DNA of 64,000 nt. It comes from Octopus vulgaris (Eukaryota). The translations under genes and the position numbers were made by a program. Of the stretch, positions 28,926-40,127 are shown one piece after another (the first letter of the stretch is position 1; the number at the start of each line of letters is the position of its first letter). The stretch is from positions 73,098,001-73,162,000 of the forward strand of contig OX597830.1 in the NCBI GenBank assembly GCA_951406725.2, read 5' to 3'. The notes beneath the pieces are model-generated. The model was not told the DNA's origin and searched no databases. It saw nothing but the letters and a program-made list of their open reading frames with translations.

Positions 28926-30215
28926 CGAGAGACGTTCAATAAGTAATGCCCCTGACCCACTTCCCATAGCAGTAGAGCAACGAAACTTGGCACAGCTATT
29001 AGTCTTTTTCTACATAGGAACCACCCAGAGTTACGCATTTCTCCCATTGTTTGATGCAGCTCTGAAGACCGTTTTTGTAGAAGACTCCAGCTTGGTCCTC
29101 CAACCTGAACGTGACTTCAGAAATCAAGGCTGCATCATCTAGGAAACGCTTTCCTTTCAAAAACAACTTCATGGCTGGGAAGAGGTGAAAATCAGAGGGT
29201 GCAAGGTCAGGAAAGTAGGGGGATGGGGGAAGAGTTCATAGCCATACGCCTGTGCTTCTGATCTGGCGACAAGCGAGTTGTGGACCGGAGCATTGTCCTG
29301 CAGGAGGAGGATGCCTTTGCTGATCTTGCCCCGCCTCTTGATTTTGATAACTTCTCTTAATTTACTCAAAAGTGAAGCATAATAGGCTCCTGCAATTGTG
29401 GTACCCTTTGCCAGGAAATCTGTCATCACTACTCCGTCATGGTCCCAGAAGACTGTGAGCATGACCTTGCCAGCGGAGGGCTGCACCCTTGCCTTCTTTG
29501 AAGGGGGTGAGTCACGGTGCTTCCACTGCATTGACTGGGCTTTGGTCTCTGGATCATCGTGATGGACCCAGGTTTCATCCTGTGTAATCAGTCTTTTGAA
29601 AAATCTTGACTCATCTTCTTGGCACATCTCCAAATTCACCCTCGAGCACTCGACGCGTTCTTGCTTCTGGAAAGGCGTGAGCAACCTGGGAATCCATCTG
29701 GCAGACACCTTTTGCATATGCAAATGGTCACGAATGATAGTTTCCACAGATCCGGTACTAATCTTGACCTCATGGGCTATTTGGCGAATAATTATGCGTC
29801 GATCTTCCAAAATGGCAGCCTCAACTTGACGGACAGATGCCTCATCAATGGCAGAAGGGGCGACCAGATCTGGGAGCTGTTTCCACAGAGTTCCGACCAT
29901 GTTTGAATTGACGATGCCAGCGTTTTACAAGGTCATATGATGGGGCATCATCACCATAAGTTACTTTCATTTCATCAAAAGTCTCCCGTGGTGTGCGTCC
30001 TTTCAAATACAAAAACCGGATCACTGCTCGACACTCAACAGGCTCCATTTCACACTTGACTCGGTTCAAATACCTGTAAATCAGAAACCGCAATTAATTC
30101 AGAGTTGTAATTTGCCACTTACTCTATAGAGATATAAATGATTGCACATGCAAAATTTCAGCTAGATCAAACAACTGCAAGTGGGTCAGAGGCATTACTT
30201 ATTGAACGTCCCTCG
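28926..30215 (-). mobile_element. Mariner (DD34D) DNA transposon, full length, 1290 bp
   Basis: 37-bp TIRs CGAGRGACGTTCAATAAGTAATGCCYCTGACCCACTT (2 mismatches), with TA on both sides. Confidence 0.96.
28999..30048 (-). pseudogene. Mariner transposase with two frameshifts (~350 codons)
   Basis: MEPVECRAVIRFL...RSGRP, frameshift, ...WIPRLL...TQDETWVHH...LLQDNAPVH...HPP, frameshift, YFPDLAPSDFHLF...GGSYVEKD*. Confidence 0.95.
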
Positions 30216-30639
30216 TATATATATATACAGGGAAAAAATCAATTTATATAATAGTCAATTTCATGTTGCCTACGAACGCTTCAATTTCTTACCTTTATTC
30301 ATATTTTGCCATTAAGATTGCATTATGAATTTGAAAGGAAAAGCTCTCTTCATGGCAAAAATTGACAAAAATTCATTCCCATCCTAACGGATGGAGAGTT
30401 ACTTACCAACTGAAATAGCAGCATGCTTTTGTGTGTTTGTTTGTGTCACCATCTGTGTCTTTTGGATTCCTTTCTAAAAAAAATAGCTTGAAGTTAATCT
30501 ATGACCACATTGGACAATGGCTACTTGTAGTTTTCAGGAACTGGGTCATACCATCATTCCTCTTAATGGAAATTAGGTCGGTTTCATAAAAGTTGGGTGC
30601 CACTCTTTTCTCTACTTTGAAAGGAATACATACATATAA

Positions 30640-30691
<52 letters not shown>

Positions 30692-30783
30692 ATTTATATA
30701 TATATATGTATTTATATATATATATATATGTGTATATATATATATATATGTGTGTATTTATATATATATATATATATATACAT

Positions 30784-30838
<55 letters not shown>

Positions 30839-31644
30839 CATATATGTATGTATATATATTACCAGGAATCCAAATTGATATATCATTTAACGTCTACTTC
30901 CTAGTTGTGAGAATTTCAATTCTTATTAGAATTTTTATTTGTTTTAGATGTATTAGTTTTATTTGTTGATAGTTTAGCTTACTATATATATTTTTAGTTG
31001 AATTAATTCTTATAAAATTCCTTATGTGTAATTTCCTATATATAATTTCACATATATAAATTTTTCTAATTTCCTTTATATTATCTTATTAAAATTCTGT
31101 CCTCCTATATGAAATGGACGAAAACATCTATAGCGACTACGGGAATTTCATATGTGTTAACACTAATACTAACGCAAGTTAATGAATTCCAAGTATATTA
31201 ATCGATATGGAGCTAATATTGTGATGAACTACATTTACCAACATGATGACAGATCTCCGAAACCCCGGAATCATCTGTTCAACTTATACTTACTCCCATT
31301 TAATTTTCTCTGTCTTTTCTACTCTGTGTATGTTGAGTCTGTTAATATAAATATATAGATATTTATACTTAAATATTCATCGTCTGAAGGTCTTCACTCT
31401 TTCCCTTCTCTCGTTTTTCATGTTTACGTATATACATATTTTGTATTCCATACCCAAGCTACTTTATTTAACCTATTCAATTTGTTTATCCCCATAAATT
31501 TGCTCCATATCTACTCAATTTGATCCCTCATATAGGCATTATTTGCTCCGCCAAATTGATCCCTAGTTATGGCATCGGAGTTTAAGTTTGAGTCATTTCA
31601 GCGCTACTGTCTATAATACTGCTAATCTCTGAATCTCATCTGTT

Positions 31645-31717
<73 letters not shown>

Positions 31718-32112
31718 GTAATATAATATAATATTAATCTAATATGTTATAAAATAATATAATACGTATAATAAAATACAGGCATACCTCAACCTACGTC
31801 ATTCATTGGTTCCAGGAGACATGACTTAAATCGAATTAACTTGTCTCTTGTCTAGGGTAGACCGATAATAACCATTCCCAGTTCTGTACTTTATTTATAA
31901 GTGGATTTTCAATAATACATGTTTAATAAAAACCTATTTGAAGCTTACAAACAAATCATTTTTATTTTTTAATACAGTACAGTAAAAATGTAAACGAATC
32001 TGAATTCAAAGCAATCGCGGGAATCACGAGTGACAGCGTCGCCTAACGGTAGGTATTGGAACAGCAGTGCAATATGAGCTCCGAAAGACTGATAAATATC
32101 ACACACACACAC

Positions 32113-32181
<69 letters not shown>

Positions 32182-32474
32182 TATATACATACACCCATAT
32201 TTTTATATTTACGGGTGAGTGGACTAACTCAATATTCCTGATGTGAGGTCGTGTGTTGGAACAGATATTGTTGTATTTTGGGACGGATATTTTTTTTGCC
32301 AAATGAACACACGCACTGTATATATTCATTCTTCACACGTTTATTACTGTTCTTATTCTAACTCATATCCATTCATGAGTTAGAAGAAGAACATTAATAA
32401 ACGAGTGAAGAATGAATTCATAGTGCATGTGTTTATTTGGAAAAAATAAGACCACCCCGAAATACAACAAAGCA

Positions 32475-32525
<51 letters not shown>

Positions 32526-32929
32526 ATAAAATCAGGAGGTTTGCGAGATGAATACATATTTATTTATTTAACAAAGTGACTCCCATAGGAATACGGTCGT
32601 ATCTAGAGCCACTAAGCTAGTAGATAGAGAACTGCCACAGAATAGCTTGAGTTATATTGTACATTGAGTTTGAGGCAGATATTTGCACCGCCATTCTTCT
32701 ATCAATATTTCCACAAAGTGAGATTAGTTCTGCACCCACCTACAAATAATCTCTGTTAGTAATCTAACACTTATAATATTGGTTGTTAGACTCCTCATAG
32801 GTGGGAGATGATGGGAGAATTCCTGGTACATACATACATACATACATATATATATATATATTATTTACATATATATGTGTGTATTTTATATGTATATATT
32901 AATATCTATCTATCTATCTATTTATCTAT

Positions 32930-33063
<134 letters not shown>

Positions 33064-33129
33064 TACATATATGTATATTTGCATATATATATATATATTT
33101 ATATGTATATATGTATATATATATACATA

Positions 33130-33261
<132 letters not shown>

Positions 33262-33928
33262 AAATATATATATATAAGGCCTTTTACCAGTATTATGATT
33301 CCGTGTCTTGATATACATCTCTGCAGATTTCTCTACTAAACTGTCTTATCTATGAAAAATCTTTCAACACTGAATATTTTCTTCAACGTCACGTTATCTA
33401 TGTGTGTGAATATGTGTACGTGTATATGCTTGTGTGTGCATGTGCTTGTATATGTATGTCTATGTATGTGTGTGTGTGTGTGTGTGTGTGTATCTCTCTA
33501 TATATATGTGATTATATATGTACATATGCTTATGTATATGGGTGGTGTGACTACCTTTAACAACCAGGAGGTTCCGAAAGTAATCTTCATAGATACTGAC
33601 AGCTGTATAAACAAAGTTTATGTATTTATGTATATATTTATTATCTCAGTATTTATATATTTATTTATTTACATATTTATTTTTGCATCTATTTTTTACC
33701 AATTCCATATTAGCCTGTTCTTGGAGTCGAACCTGAGAAAATCTTTACTAGCCTTACTGACAGATTTAGTGTCTTATCCTTAATAATGCCGCTGAATGCA
33801 ATTTAGATATGGCGGCCACGTCACAAAAGTCACATGACATGCCTTGTAGGAGGATTCTGCGTAGTAGCCAGCTCCGAAAAAAATAGTAGCTAAACACCCT
33901 TAATTGACTTCTTACCATCTTGAAAACA

Positions 33929-34303
33929 CTATATTTTCCGGCATGCCAATCGGTGTAATATAGCGTTAACATATAGGTTAAAAATTCCAACTTTGCCACT
34001 GTATTTCTCCAAATCTTGCTGCATTACAAATGGAGGTTTTGGTCCGCCATCGCCGTCTTGATCAATAAGTTGTTCCGCCTTATTTTGGCTGTAAATTTTT
34101 TCAATTTTATATTTAAGAGATGAGGAATTATTTACATTATTTACATTCGACGGATATTTGTCCTCATCTTATTTGTTATTAACAAAACGTTTCGCCTGAT
34201 ATACCCTCCAGCCATCTTCAGGTGTCTTGAGGAAATTTCGAACCTGGGTTCTCATTCCTAAAGTATTTTTCAATGTTTTTGTTGTTGTTGTTGTTGCTGC
34301 TGC

Positions 34304-34340
<37 letters not shown>

Positions 34341-34351
34341 GCTGCTGCTGC

Positions 34352-34409
<58 letters not shown>

Positions 34410-34437
34410 ATTATTATCATCTTCCTCCTCCTCCTCA

Positions 34438-34480
<43 letters not shown>

Positions 34481-34975
34481 CATTGTTATTGTTCAGGTCA
34501 CTGCTTGGAATCGAACTCAGAATCTTGGGGTAACACGAGTAGATATTGATAAATCGGGTAAAGCTGATCATGTATGGAAAAATGGAGACCAGGAGACCAC
34601 CTCCTCCCTGTGGGATGAAGTTAAAATAATAGACAGAGAACACCACTGGAAAATACGAAAACTAAAAGAAGCAGCACATATGCTAGGTCACAACAACCTC
34701 CTAAGCAGACCGAGCGCAGATATTAGCAGCATATAGGAACCAGTATTAAGGAAGGATTGAAAAATATTAGATTTATGAGCCCTAAAATTCACTCCATAAT
34801 TGCCCACGGGCATATTGCGTAGTAGTTAAGAGCGCGGCTACTCACCCCAAGATGGAGGCTATATCATCCGAAACGTTGTGTTAACAACAAACAAGATGAG
34901 GACAAATATCCTTCGAATGTAGATAATGTGTAAATTTTTTGTCACAAAATTCGATTTGTATGCCGGAAAATACGA
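33929..34975. mobile_element. Tc2/pogo-like MITE split by the Penelope-like insertion
   Basis: Imperfect TIRs CTATATTTTCCGGCATGCCAATCG / CGATTTGTATGCCGGAAAATACGA flank the PLE. Confidence 0.5.
34115..34929 (+). mobile_element. Penelope-like element, 5'-truncated with inverted pLTR
   Basis: GIY-YIG C-terminal-like peptide KSGKADHVWKNG...WDEVKIIDREHHWKIRKLKEAAHM (about 34540-34736). The 3' sequence GAAACGTT.TGTTAA.AACAAA.AAGATGAGGACAAATATCC is present in both orientations. HHR core CTGAAGA...GAAAC on the minus strand at 34181-34226. Confidence 0.8.
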
Positions 34976-35599
34976 TATCGATATTTTAATTAACGTTTTA
35001 GACATGACATGACAGAAAATGCGGTATAGTCAAAAATTGAACGCTTTTGATTATTGGTCTTGTCATTCAGAGCTAACTTGAGATTAGACTGACTGCAGTA
35101 CCAACTACAACGAAACCAACGTGGTTAAAGTTATGCTGTCGAAAGTTTAGAAAGCACCCAGTTCGATATAATTGCGTTAACGAAACCAAGAGAAGGAAAT
35201 TTTGTCCGATGCTCTAATCTTTTGTCAATTCACCATCCCTTTCCGAAAGAAACTATTGAAATATTTTCTCCACAAAGAAAACAAGAAAACGAGGTTTATA
35301 TTCACTGAAACTACAGACTTATGGACAATACAGTCTCCTCTGCCGATTTAGCATTTATTCTCTAGAGACATATTTCCAAATTAAGGCGCCATGTGATGGT
35401 GGCAAGCGATAGCACACTGACAGGAAAATAATTGGAACACAAGTAACTTGGTTGGACGTTGAAATATCAGCCTTGCTGTAGCAAAGCTATAATCAAAGAT
35501 GTTACCGCTGCGACTACTACGTCTTTGGGTTTAAAAAAATTTCGTTGCTTCTAGCAGAATAATTTGAAGTCAAAGCGAAGTGAGCCAGATCGCATGCCC

Positions 35600-36548
35600 G
35601 CAAGGCTTTCTCTCTAACCCTCTAAAGTTACTGTCGATTCTTATCATACATACATACACTCATCATACATAAATAAAGACCATGCATGGGTATGTTGTCC
35701 TGAAGCTTTAAGAAAGCAGTGGAATTGACACGAAGCGCAGTTTCTCTTGGACACAAGACCACTACATCGCATCTCCCTTTGAAGGCTATGTGGTTGCAAT
35801 CCACAAAGCACCTGGTGAACAAGAGAGACAGTGACGCTCTTGTAATCCCAAGGTGCAACCGCATGTGTAGGCTAGGTCATGTTTCTGTGGAAGAAATTAT
35901 GCATGAGCTGTCCAAAAATGTCGTCACTACCTCCCTAGGTGGCACGATGTTGTTGCTAAAACAATTTACAATGCCATCCGAAAAAATGATTGTATGAAAT
36001 AAACTTAGAAATTTCCTGTTATGGAATACATTCATAAACACCAACCCAAAGAATACTGGTGGAATATTCTCATAAAAACTTCAAATATAAACATAACAGC
36101 CCGGCTATTGTTGTTTGGAACAGAGATGCAAAGGCATGTACCATCATAGAGGTCAGCTGCCCAGCAGATATAAATATCCCTTTGAAAAGATAAAAAGATA
36201 AAAAGAGGTTATCTATGGACTACTGCTTCGAAACTCTAGCTTCTTTATCCAAACTATGAATTCATATTCATGCCAATAATAATTGGAGCACTAGGTTTTG
36301 TTAGAAAATGTTTAAAAGATAATCTGGATAAATTGGGATTTTCAGAAAGAGAAATTGACTGGCTGATTCTTACATTACAAGTGAAATCTGTGAGTGGAAC
36401 AGTAAAAATATGCAAGACTTTTTTCAAGTTCCAAATGTTAATTTGTCTGTGATAACTGCATCCCAAAATGGAGCGTTGTTCCTTTGTTGGAAACCGGCTT
36501 CCTCCTCAGTGGAAGATTAATAATAATTAAGAAATAAAAGAGAAATGC
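35600..36548 (+). mobile_element. R4/NeSL-type (restriction-like endonuclease) LINE 3' fragment ending in (CATA)n
   Basis: Decayed zinc-knuckle region (CRLGH..EEIMH), IVVWNRDAKACTIIEVSCPADINI and PIIIGALGFV...LQVKSVSGTVKI, with frameshifts. Confidence 0.75.
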
Positions 36549-37542
36549 ACACATACATACATACATACATACAAACATACATACATACATACATACATAC
36601 ATACATACATACATACATGCATGCATGCATACATACATACGTACATACATACATACATACATACATACATGCATGCATGCATGCATACATACATACATGC
36701 ATACATACATACATACATACATACATACATACATGCATACATACATACATACAAGCAGACAGATAGACATACGCAAAGACATCAGATTATGTTTTATATG
36801 TGTATACATGCACCTTTCAAAGCTATGCAAATTAACTCATAGTGGCCAATGGCACGCATTTGAACATAAACATATACAGATGTATCAAATACCAAACCAC
36901 AAAACTTTTTATTTTTTAAAGTTATATATGTATCTTAGGGGCAATTAAGATCAACTCCACATGAAAAGTGGGGCTAATGATCAGATTAAAAAGAATTATC
37001 CAGAGTTATCGGGATAAGTTATCGGTCTGTTGTTTGGAGGTAAGTGAATACTTGTGGACAAGTATTTCTTTATCTATAGCTCTCATCAGCATGACAAAAG
37101 TCAGATATTCTCCAGTAGCCAACGCAGTTATTACTGTTTATTTGAGCGTGTGCATTGAAAGATGTGCAAGTAGTGTGTTTATGTAACTGTCTACAATCAA
37201 ATGTATGTCCCTTCCCATACGATGGAATATTCATACAAATTTACAAAAGAAGCACCAGGTATATGCGTACATAAATAGGCCTGGCTCACCGTCCGTTTCG
37301 ATGACGAATGTTCCTGAGGATTTGATCAAAGCGAAAAGCCTCTTCGTGGAATTAATGTGCAAGTGGTTGAGTGCTCCACGGAAGCAAGTACTCTAAACGT
37401 AGCTGTCAGGGAAGCTCAATGTTAAATAAAGTACTTTTCTCAAAGAGCCACGCTGCACGACTTTACTATCGTAAGCCAGATAACCTAACCACTAAGCCAC
37501 TCGCCTTCACGCATATATGTATATTGAGAGAGAAAGAGAGAA

Positions 37543-37573
<31 letters not shown>

Positions 37574-37601
37574 TAAATGTCTGTGCGTATGTGTCTGTTT
37601 G

Positions 37602-37636
<35 letters not shown>

Positions 37637-37918
37637 ATGTGTTATGTATGTATGTATGTAGGCATACGAACATACATACGTCATCGCGTCTATGGTGAAA
37701 GCTGAAGCTACTCTTGCCTGGCATTCGTCATTTTCTGTTCATGCAACATTAAACATTATAGCCGCGTTTGTGTTTGTGTTGTGACATCTGCTTAAACAGC
37801 ACCTGCTCTCTGTATATCTGTCTGTTTGTCTCTATGTTCGTCTGTCTTGTCTGTTTATCTGTCGGTTTGTCTGTCTATATTGTGTTTATCTTGCTATCTC
37901 TCTTTCCTATACTGTCAA

Positions 37919-37952
<34 letters not shown>

Positions 37953-37977
37953 CCTCTCCACCACACTTTTCCAGTTC

Positions 37978-38009
<32 letters not shown>

Positions 38010-38542
38010 TTATCTATCACATCATGATATAGCTATAAATACTACTCGCCATAAATGCTATTCGCCATCACCATTTATGTGCAGCATAAATGCCTTTTGG
38101 TTGGGGTGGTCACAGCTCCTTCTCTACAGATTTTTGTTGTCCACCCACTTGTACCGATTACTGAAAAACTAACCGGGTCACAAGACACTGGATACGTACA
38201 TCAGCCGGCAGGCGTCAACATCGACCCTACAAGCCGATTAAAGTAAGGGAATCATCAAAACAGATAGAATGGCTTGCAGTATTCGTACCGGTTCCCTGCA
38301 CTTTCACTTTATATTCCGTTGGGGTTAAACCACTCAGCATTGTTCTGAGATCGATGAAGAAAGTATTAGTCAATTACTAGTGTCCATTCGTCTCTCATCT
38401 TTATTCTCTGTACCTGAGTTGTCTATCTTACTCCCTTTCTTCCACTCTGTACCTCTTTCTCACTCTCTCTCGCTTTCTCTCTCACCCCTTCTTTATCTGA
38501 AACACTCATGCAGAATCCTTCACCACGATACCTTTTAATATA

Positions 38543-38911
38543 CTATTAGCGCTATGACCCAGCAACGCCGGGTCATAGTGCTAGTGCATGCATATACAGC
38601 TGCATGCATGCGCACATACACGCGAGTACTGTCCAAATCGCCAACCAATCACATACAGCTAGCTGGCATTCAATTGGCGTATCAAGTATCGGGCATTTTG
38701 ATTGGGTTTTGGATAGAAAATTCACAAAAAAGTCACTTCTATTGATTTTTTTAATGGCTTTGCAGAGTGACTGGGGAAATGTAAAGATGTGCACGACCAC
38801 CCTTGGACGGTTTTGAATGACCATAGAAAGTGCGAACCCTCTAACTGAAAAAAGTGTGGATTTGTATAAAGGCCACACTCGCAAACATTTTGCCGTTTAT
38901 ATATATAGAGA
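38543..38911 (-). mobile_element. Non-autonomous Helitron-like element
   Basis: Minus-strand 5' TC(TA)n start; subterminal hairpin TAGCGCTATGACCC...GGGTCATAGTGCTA near a degenerate 3' CTRR. The end is shared with 58675-59404. Confidence 0.65.
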
Positions 38912-39615
38912 TGTTACACCTTCAGCTGGGCGGAGGATAACTATTCACAATGACCCTTTCTTTAGAAAGGTACAAGAGGTGGAGTGATGGCCTTGCGACT
39001 TCTATCATAAAATAATAAAACTGCTAAGCAATGGAAAGGTCCAAGGATGGTCTGTTGCGCGGTACAGCACATAACGAAAATAGTAACAAAGAAAATAAGT
39101 GCTTGATTAAAAGTTTTTTTTTATATCGGATATGGAACGGCCGAGAAGTTGAACGTGAAGAACCATGATTGAAATCACGTGATTTGAACAATAGAAGTTC
39201 GCCCTGTTCTAACGTATTTTTTATCTGATTTTTGTCAGGTTTTCGCCAAGAGTTGCGACTGACAGACAGTATCAGAAGTTTTGAAAATAGAAAACAGAAC
39301 GTAAGGTTTCCTTGCTTTAAACGATGATGTCGAAGACGACGGCTATTATGTCCTCCTCCACCTCCTCCACCGATGTCAACACTGCCACCATCACCGCCAC
39401 TGCAGCTACCGTCAGCACCAACACTACTGCTACGAGCATCACCACCACTACCACCGCCGCCATCACCACCACTACCACAACCTCTACCGCCAGCGCTACC
39501 ACCACTACCAACAACAAAACCTCCATCAACATCCCTAAACATCATGACCATCATCAACCTGGGTACATAAGAAAACAAGACGGGAATTTCAAAAAGGGAT
39601 CTTTTCCAATCTAAG

Positions 39616-39756
39616 AACAAGGCCCGAAATTTGTGAGGAGGGGGCCAGTCGATTAGATCGACCCTAGTACGCAACTACTGCTTAATTTACCGACCTGGAT
39701 AGGATGAAAAGCAAAGTCGACCTCGGCGGACTTTGAACTCAGAACGTAGAGGCAGA
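39616..39756 (-). mobile_element. SINE family A fragment (tail2 type)
   Basis: GGATGAAAAGCAAAGTCGACCTCGGCGGACTTTGAACTCAGAACGTA. Confidence 0.8.
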
Positions 39757-40127
39757 TGATCAAGAATGGATAGCCTCTCAACTTATGTCTGCTCGATCAG
39801 TGTTTTGATTATTTATTTAGTTATTTCCGGTTTCTTCGTTCTTTCATTTATCGATTTATCGATTTAGAGAGGGAGAGTGGGGAGGAGAGAGGGGGAGAGG
39901 GATTGCTGTCAACCTAAAATAATGCCTTGAAGGGTTAAGTTGGATAAAATTGAACGCATTATGTGTTTTAGGTTTGGTAAGTATTCTAATATATATTTTC
40001 GCCGAGCCGCTAAGTCACAAGGACGTAAACAAAAAAACACCGGCTGGCAAGCGTTGCGAGACAAATACAAACACAAGGATGTAAACACCCACGCTCAAAT
40101 ATATAAATATACACACACACACTTGTG

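Follow-up and report, generated by a model that had tools for sequence, protein, structure and literature searches.

A Penelope-like element (PLE) in the genome of Octopus vulgaris appears to have captured a tRNA-derived module, including A and B boxes, at its pLTR, and this module is probably a polymerase III (Pol III) promoter for the whole protein-coding element. Transcription of the entire element by Pol III is suggested because a tRNA-like promoter starts the unit and is followed by a 2.3-kb gene without T-run terminators; as far as sequence comparison can speak to the matter, the pile-up of copy ends at the edge of the tRNA-like head and the depletion of TTTT both support this reading. 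In the usual model of retrotransposons, coding elements belong to Pol II and short parasites to Pol III. If our reading is correct, a high-copy element breaking the Pol II rule would allow long read-through by Pol III and translation without a cap to be tested in nature, and it would exemplify one way in which short repeats with a tRNA head can come about.

The window, by which we mean the whole 64,000-nt stretch of octopus DNA that was analysed, contains at 34102-34928 a decayed inverted insertion of this PLE, bounded by a 12-bp target duplication (Table 1). In its + arm, the ORF carries premature stops at 34734-34736 and 34758-34760, ahead of the family stop at 34776-34778, and an internal deletion has removed the B box, the microsatellite, the start codon and the 5' half of the hammerhead. 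The motifs named in a first-pass annotation of this DNA (A-box half, B-box half, microsatellite, hammerhead core and GIY-YIG-like C-terminus) are all present where it had placed them. It had also recognized that the + arm lost its intervening part, but the AAGAT microhomology proposed for this loss does not give a clean fit, since the alignment needs a further 4-nt gap and the T of the motif in the - arm differs from the family state. Similarly, the base directly before the + arm head, 34807, is C and not the G that had been read there. The flanking 12-bp duplication had gone unnoticed in that annotation. Elsewhere in the window, a 251-codon frame at 29169-29924 (-) resembles, judging from its motifs, a fragment of a mariner-type transposase, and just downstream of the insertion lies a degenerate coding-like stretch (35704-36450, +), possibly an old LINE 3' end.

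Table 1. Parts of the inverted PLE insertion and its flanking duplication (window positions)
Feature	Position	Strand	Remark
Target-site duplication, left copy, 12 bp	34090..34101	.	identical to 34929-34940
Long tail of the inverted arm; codons of the ORF 5' region	34102..34180	-	end point at about +154, counted from the start codon
Minimal hammerhead motif, type I, within the ORF	34181..34226	-	predicted motif; stems I and II carry substitutions in this copy
Leader end and ORF start	34227..34276	-	start codon 34255-34253
Microsatellite of (AAT/AAC)n type, separating head and start codon	~34277..34489	-	expanded at this locus
tRNA-like head, 3' half with B box	34490..34531	-	5'-truncated arm; truncation point within the head, where the inversion junction lies
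PLE ORF C-terminus (GIY-YIG region)	about 34532..34778	+	5'-truncated
29-nt spacer from stop codon to next head	34779..34807	+	last bases and head start form an imperfect palindrome
tRNA-like head, 5' half	34808..34853	+	mutated A box at 34815-34825
Hammerhead 3' remnant and short tail end, after the internal deletion	34854..34928	+	alignment to - arm
Target-site duplication, right copy	34929..34940	.	

A tRNA-like head on a coding element

The insertion belongs to a very large family. Searches of the 2.8-Gb genome returned thousands of relatives of the ORF end plus head at ~90% identity, and the ORF C-terminus of the window is likewise ~90% identical to copies that continue into the RT domain. 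Exact 29-base patterns matched 6,982 times for the tail, 2,211 times for the head, 642 times for the ORF end plus spacer and 550 times for the endonuclease, against 0 matches in the genome for reversed control patterns, which excludes chance as the origin of the motifs. Because the exact head pattern is kept in just 4 of 27 independent copies, the head can be loosely estimated to occur ~15,000 times genome-wide. The head is fixed in ORF-bearing copies: among the first 30 endonuclease-pattern matches, two of which are arms of a single insertion, 28 pass from the spacer straight into the head and the other two, an internal fragment and a copy ending before the head, simply stop short of it, while no passage from the ORF to the hammerhead without a head remnant was found among the 30.

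Full-length copies reveal how the unit is arranged. Their tail passes directly into the ORF body, and a start codon lies just after the microsatellite, with the frame staying open across hammerhead and tail and on into the body in one copy (L262), interrupted by single stops in two others (L275, L269), and an ORF N-terminus that aligns with a database homologue (P0007). From the run of the tail into the ORF body and the open frame behind the post-microsatellite start codon, it follows that the unit consists of head, microsatellite, ORF and spacer. In full, it runs from head, microsatellite and start codon through hammerhead, tail, RT and GIY-YIG region to the stop, the 29-nt spacer and then the head again; L424 is a complete pLTR-ORF-pLTR unit, L265 and L273 are arranged in tandem, and the microsatellite occurs in nearly all copies at variable length. 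The intact repeat is a tRNA head, a microsatellite and a minimal hammerhead, just as the first-pass annotation had proposed, but its placement of this module in the 3' region of a Penelope element has to be reversed, since the head starts the unit and the ORF begins, at its 5' end, with the hammerhead and tail. Given that the segment after the microsatellite is the ORF start, and that sequence variants are common to copies with and without the ORF, the module represents the promoter end of an autonomous element.

The coding sequence is that of a PLE. Pfam RVT_1 matches a 465-aa frame of L212 at E=5.5e-10, and the ORF has 891 homologues at E<=1e-30, the closest database proteins being 60-72% identical. 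A GIY-YIG motif region is visible and common to three homologues (P0003, P0005, P0026), two homologues carry PF01541, and Pfam yielded no GIY-YIG match on the window fragment or on L027. When a distant PLE protein served as query, only the tRNA-headed family was returned (30/30 loci). Partial-tandem pLTRs, an inverted 5' copy and a one-sided tail, the marks of EN+ PLEs, are all present, and a Penelope/Poseidon assignment seems appropriate in view of the architecture, in which a hammerhead overlaps the beginning of the ORF like that of PAc, and of features characteristic of the clade. A divergent copy, L243 (78% identity, three TTTT runs in 1.45 kb), could belong to an older subfamily, which would be of use in dating when the head was captured, and L184:1-3496 is a tandem array of ~535-bp units with >99% identity adjoining a long copy. 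A candidate deletion-derivative subfamily (L252, L255; L389, L390) was discarded, as its one junction from early ORF to head start has only two copies in the genome; the junction common to L252 and L255 is probably a segmental duplication.

The tRNA origin of the head rests on its end-to-end alignment with the genome's own tRNAs, the best match to the intact head being tRNA-Arg(TCG) (L373; z=7.8 vs shuffles) in a comparison set of 30 sampled loci covering six isotypes only. The head is in register with the tRNA +1 and keeps both the A and B promoter boxes, as recognized by the usual box consensus. The cloverleaf fold has been lost and the acceptor and T stems are broken; ARAGORN called no tRNA in the 64-kb window, and Rfam found neither a tRNA nor a hammerhead in window positions 30000-40000 or in the intact copy L095. 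For the predicted minimal type I hammerhead, the core and stems are present in the family majority, as had been anticipated, and the full core pattern is kept in 89 of 249 copies. One locus among 60 (L073) contains a direct triple repeat of the hammerhead part.

Copy ends and their proposed origin

The 5' ends of copies are concentrated at the head edge. Among 30 consecutive head matches on one chromosome, six have upstream element sequence and 24, including two duplicated pairs, do not; by eye, 21 of these 24 end within ~+4 to -10 of the tRNA +1 or fold back there, and the remaining 3 start at +8. Exact-pattern counts drop 3.4-fold across the head 5' edge (2,211 to 642), compared with 1.2-fold across the 150 nt that follow (642 to 550). 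In a biased mix of 239 distinct head arms pooled from all searches, 97 extend at least 20 nt upstream and 5 extend 10-20 nt, while 53 end at +1 to -6 and 3 at -7 to -9; a further 33 are symmetric fold-backs centred on the spacer/head junction and 48 start inside the head. Two copies (L260, L264) start at -2 to -4 and then continue into the ORF, from which it follows that an ORF-containing template RNA also begins at this point.

The 3' ends of 179 arms are bimodal, at ~+120-130 and ~+150-160, and roughly match the initiation distances of PAc, a Poseidon element of Anolis carolinensis whose ORF begins within the hammerhead and whose RT has two internal initiation sites in the 5' part of the ORF (Frangieh et al. 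2024, PMC11167929). Short and long ends are paired in 81 of 89 inverted insertions, and duplications of at least 8 bp flank 58% of these 89 vs 4% of shuffled pairs. The family also supplies in vivo support for priming at two sites and on two strands, as observed for PAc in vitro.

Several steps can be proposed from these features. A tRNA- or SINE-derived promoter would have been captured by the element at its pLTR, and transcription would start 2-6 nt upstream of the tRNA +1 in the upstream repeat, with Pol III presumably continuing past the terminator-free ORF to reach the downstream repeat. RT would then initiate internally at either of two tail sites, as in PAc in vitro. Initiation at the first tail would copy the tail-to-5'-end portion only, yielding the abundant short, SINE-looking copies, and initiation at the second would yield ORF-bearing, 5'-truncated copies like the + arm at the window locus. 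Two cDNAs primed on opposite target strands, one with a long and one with a short end, would join into an inverted pair flanked by a duplication. The protein could alternatively be supplied by host Pol II read-through.

Terminator content and competing readings

The ancestral or majority body of the family has 0 TTTT in 2,329 nt, and the 21 TTTT found in 56 copy segments (49.7 kb) include no site common to more than 2 copies; the two runs of the complete unit L424 are consistent with post-insertion decay. As a same-genome control, a single, distantly related family of young headless PLEs has 10 TTTT in 2,433 nt at a similar T content (0.23; binomial P=0.001). Among 80 metagenome PLE segments, not sorted by head presence, there are 586 TTTT in 132.7 kb; none of the 51 segments of at least 1.5 kb is TTTT-free, and three short ones had none. 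The absence in the octopus family, which is a property of one ancestral sequence and one evolutionary sample, reaches P=0.015 against base composition and is not significant against order-1 Markov (P=0.13), order-2 Markov (P=0.25) or synonymous-codon shuffle (P=0.14) nulls. GGGG is depleted as well, with an observed/expected ratio of 0.24 vs 0.66 in controls. The control family itself, located at L418:3438-5870 (+), L419 and L420 and found from L037:2226-2429, has many intact frames of ~811 codons and 150 scored matches that are nearly identical and often in inverted pairs, and it has likely been active recently; its 3' end showed no tRNA head. For a second candidate control family, 2 matches were obtained.

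Some features count against the Pol III reading. The translation of an uncapped Pol III RNA is left without explanation, the hammerhead lies inside coding sequence, 48 of the 239 arms start inside the head, and the hairpin at the spacer/head junction, the chief competing account, could itself concentrate cDNA ends. In three RNA-seq runs from one study of a related species, together with contigs X1, the family is present equally on both strands and mirrors copy number, with no start or end peaks along it; the step in read depth at the edge of the head follows the copy profile of the genome, which indicates that the architecture is common to both species and is uninformative on the polymerase. 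A more far-reaching version of the Pol III reading, to which we would give a little less than even weight, has an autonomous coding retrotransposon transcribed by Pol III from end to end, with a terminator-purged 2.3-kb gene and capless translation via the microsatellite leader, whose 5' read-outs would have spread Pol III promoters in their thousands through the genome; it would amount to a SINE observed as it is being born from a pLTR.

The first-pass annotation had envisaged a separate Penelope-dependent SINE, and one alternative accordingly treats the solo units of head, microsatellite and hammerhead as a Pol III SINE that propagates itself and is mobilised in trans by the PLE, and the ORF itself as a Pol II product. 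Units of head and hammerhead without the ORF are indeed the majority (24/30 head copies), and they carry both boxes, the 5' tRNA-derived head with A and B boxes being typical of tRNA-derived SINEs. Furthermore, of 29 copies with a downstream TTTT, 26 have it at least 181 nt from +1, beyond the unit, such that solo copies could be transcribed as short RNAs. However, no diagnostic lineage is apparent. Across 207 head arms, non-CpG variants occur at similar frequency in ORF-linked and free copies (27/65 vs 53/106 at head position 64; 20/66 vs 29/85 for a hammerhead T/A variant), and both classes show a similar divergence of 6-7%. At two head positions that do differ, the bases are those private to the query copy, an effect of ascertainment; a tail position 140 variant (P=0.04) and a hammerhead-region gap (P about 0.005) are further differences that are unaccounted for. 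L260 and L264 begin at the same 5' point as the short copies and run on into the ORF, and the segment after the microsatellite is the first 40-50 codons of the ORF itself, so a distinct non-autonomous family is not what the unit represents, but rather the pLTR of the autonomous element plus its ORF start. Solo copies also stop at the presumed RT start sites, and PAc needed ORF RNA beyond these in vitro (PMC11167929); the sole internally deleted tandem form occurs just twice, and the TTTT-free ORF would be left without account. Because their polymorphisms are common to the ORF copies, the short copies look like read-outs of the 5' end of the element RNA. We therefore reject an independent SINE lineage on balance and consider the self-propagating SINE unlikely, while some solo copies may possibly act as secondary sources. 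Tandem arrays of hammerhead monomers, as in non-LTR retrozymes, were likewise set aside, the copies being mostly single or inverted.

A different objection concerns the head itself, which might be a passive SINE fragment residing in the pLTR of an element with a Pol II promoter, where a palindrome stalls RT or anneals opposite cDNAs and thereby piles up ends. The junction does form a hairpin of -11.5 kcal/mol (copy L005), on which the 33 symmetric fold-backs are centred; for other PLEs, the pLTR is described as containing a LINE-like internal promoter (PMC2377424), and the loss of TTTT is non-significant under the Markov nulls. Even so, we regard a passive head as rather improbable, since the 53 arms ending at +1 to -6 have no long palindromic partner and almost none end just beyond, both boxes have been retained while the cloverleaf was lost, and the TTTT contrast with 81 control segments stands. 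It is more doubtful still that the RNA 5' end at the head is made in some other way, either by a head-directed Pol II start or by RNase P-type cleavage at the tRNA +1. The largest end class scored does lie at +1 (22/56), though it includes CpG-decayed -2 ends. RNase P-type cleavage would have to act on broken acceptor and T stems in which Rfam and ARAGORN call nothing, and the extra G expected at the junction from a copied cap occurs at just 1 of 9 clean -2 junctions.

Relation to known elements

The octopus family shares many features with Penelope/Poseidon PLEs, represented by PAc (PMC11167929) and Drosophila virilis Penelope (Schostak et al. 2008, PMC2377424). These include a single ORF with RT plus a putative GIY-YIG domain at the C-terminus, partial tandem pLTRs with an inverted 5' copy and a one-sided tail, a minimal hammerhead overlapping the ORF start, and two internal RT start sites, which are presumed ones in the octopus family; the PAc hammerhead cleaves only with protein (PMC11167929). 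The difference lies in the promoter, which in PAc and Penelope is described as LINE-like and internal to the pLTR, whereas in the octopus family a tRNA-derived A/B-box module opens the pLTR and Pol III terminators are missing from the ORF. The TRIMp3 elements Cassandra, Helenus and Ajax likewise have, inside the terminal repeat, a Pol III promoter that derives from a small RNA and was possibly acquired via SINE insertion (Kojima 2024, PMC10886601). According to that paper, these are short non-autonomous LTR elements whose autonomous partners must use Pol II, Pol III being weakly processive, while the putative octopus promoter sits on an RT-encoding element.

Two further parallels involve hammerheads. 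The schistosome SM-alpha and Sj-alpha repeats likewise combine a Pol III-type promoter and a hammerhead in one unit, but as summarised by Weinberg et al. (2019, PMC6765202) they are non-coding tandem repeats with an active canonical hammerhead, as opposed to the minimal PLE type within the coding sequence of a partner ORF. The non-LTR retrozymes derived from PLE pLTRs are also short hammerhead-bearing repeats. In the accessible part of their description (bioRxiv 10.64898/2026.07.22.740005), they are defined as tandem arrays and no tRNA promoter is mentioned, whereas the short octopus copies lie dispersed, as single or inverted insertions that carry target duplications. Our literature search returned no description of a tRNA-headed or Pol III-transcribed PLE, and repeat databases (Repbase, Dfam, the PMC13282606 library) may already hold the consensus of this family.

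Repeat libraries would wrongly split the family into a SINE and a Penelope family. Its microsatellite also hosts other sequences, as the 3' ends of two other repeats are found repeatedly and immediately within the (AAT)n tract, one in L139, L140 and L149 and the other in L104 and L137. These may belong to microsatellite-targeting LINEs such as Dong/R4.
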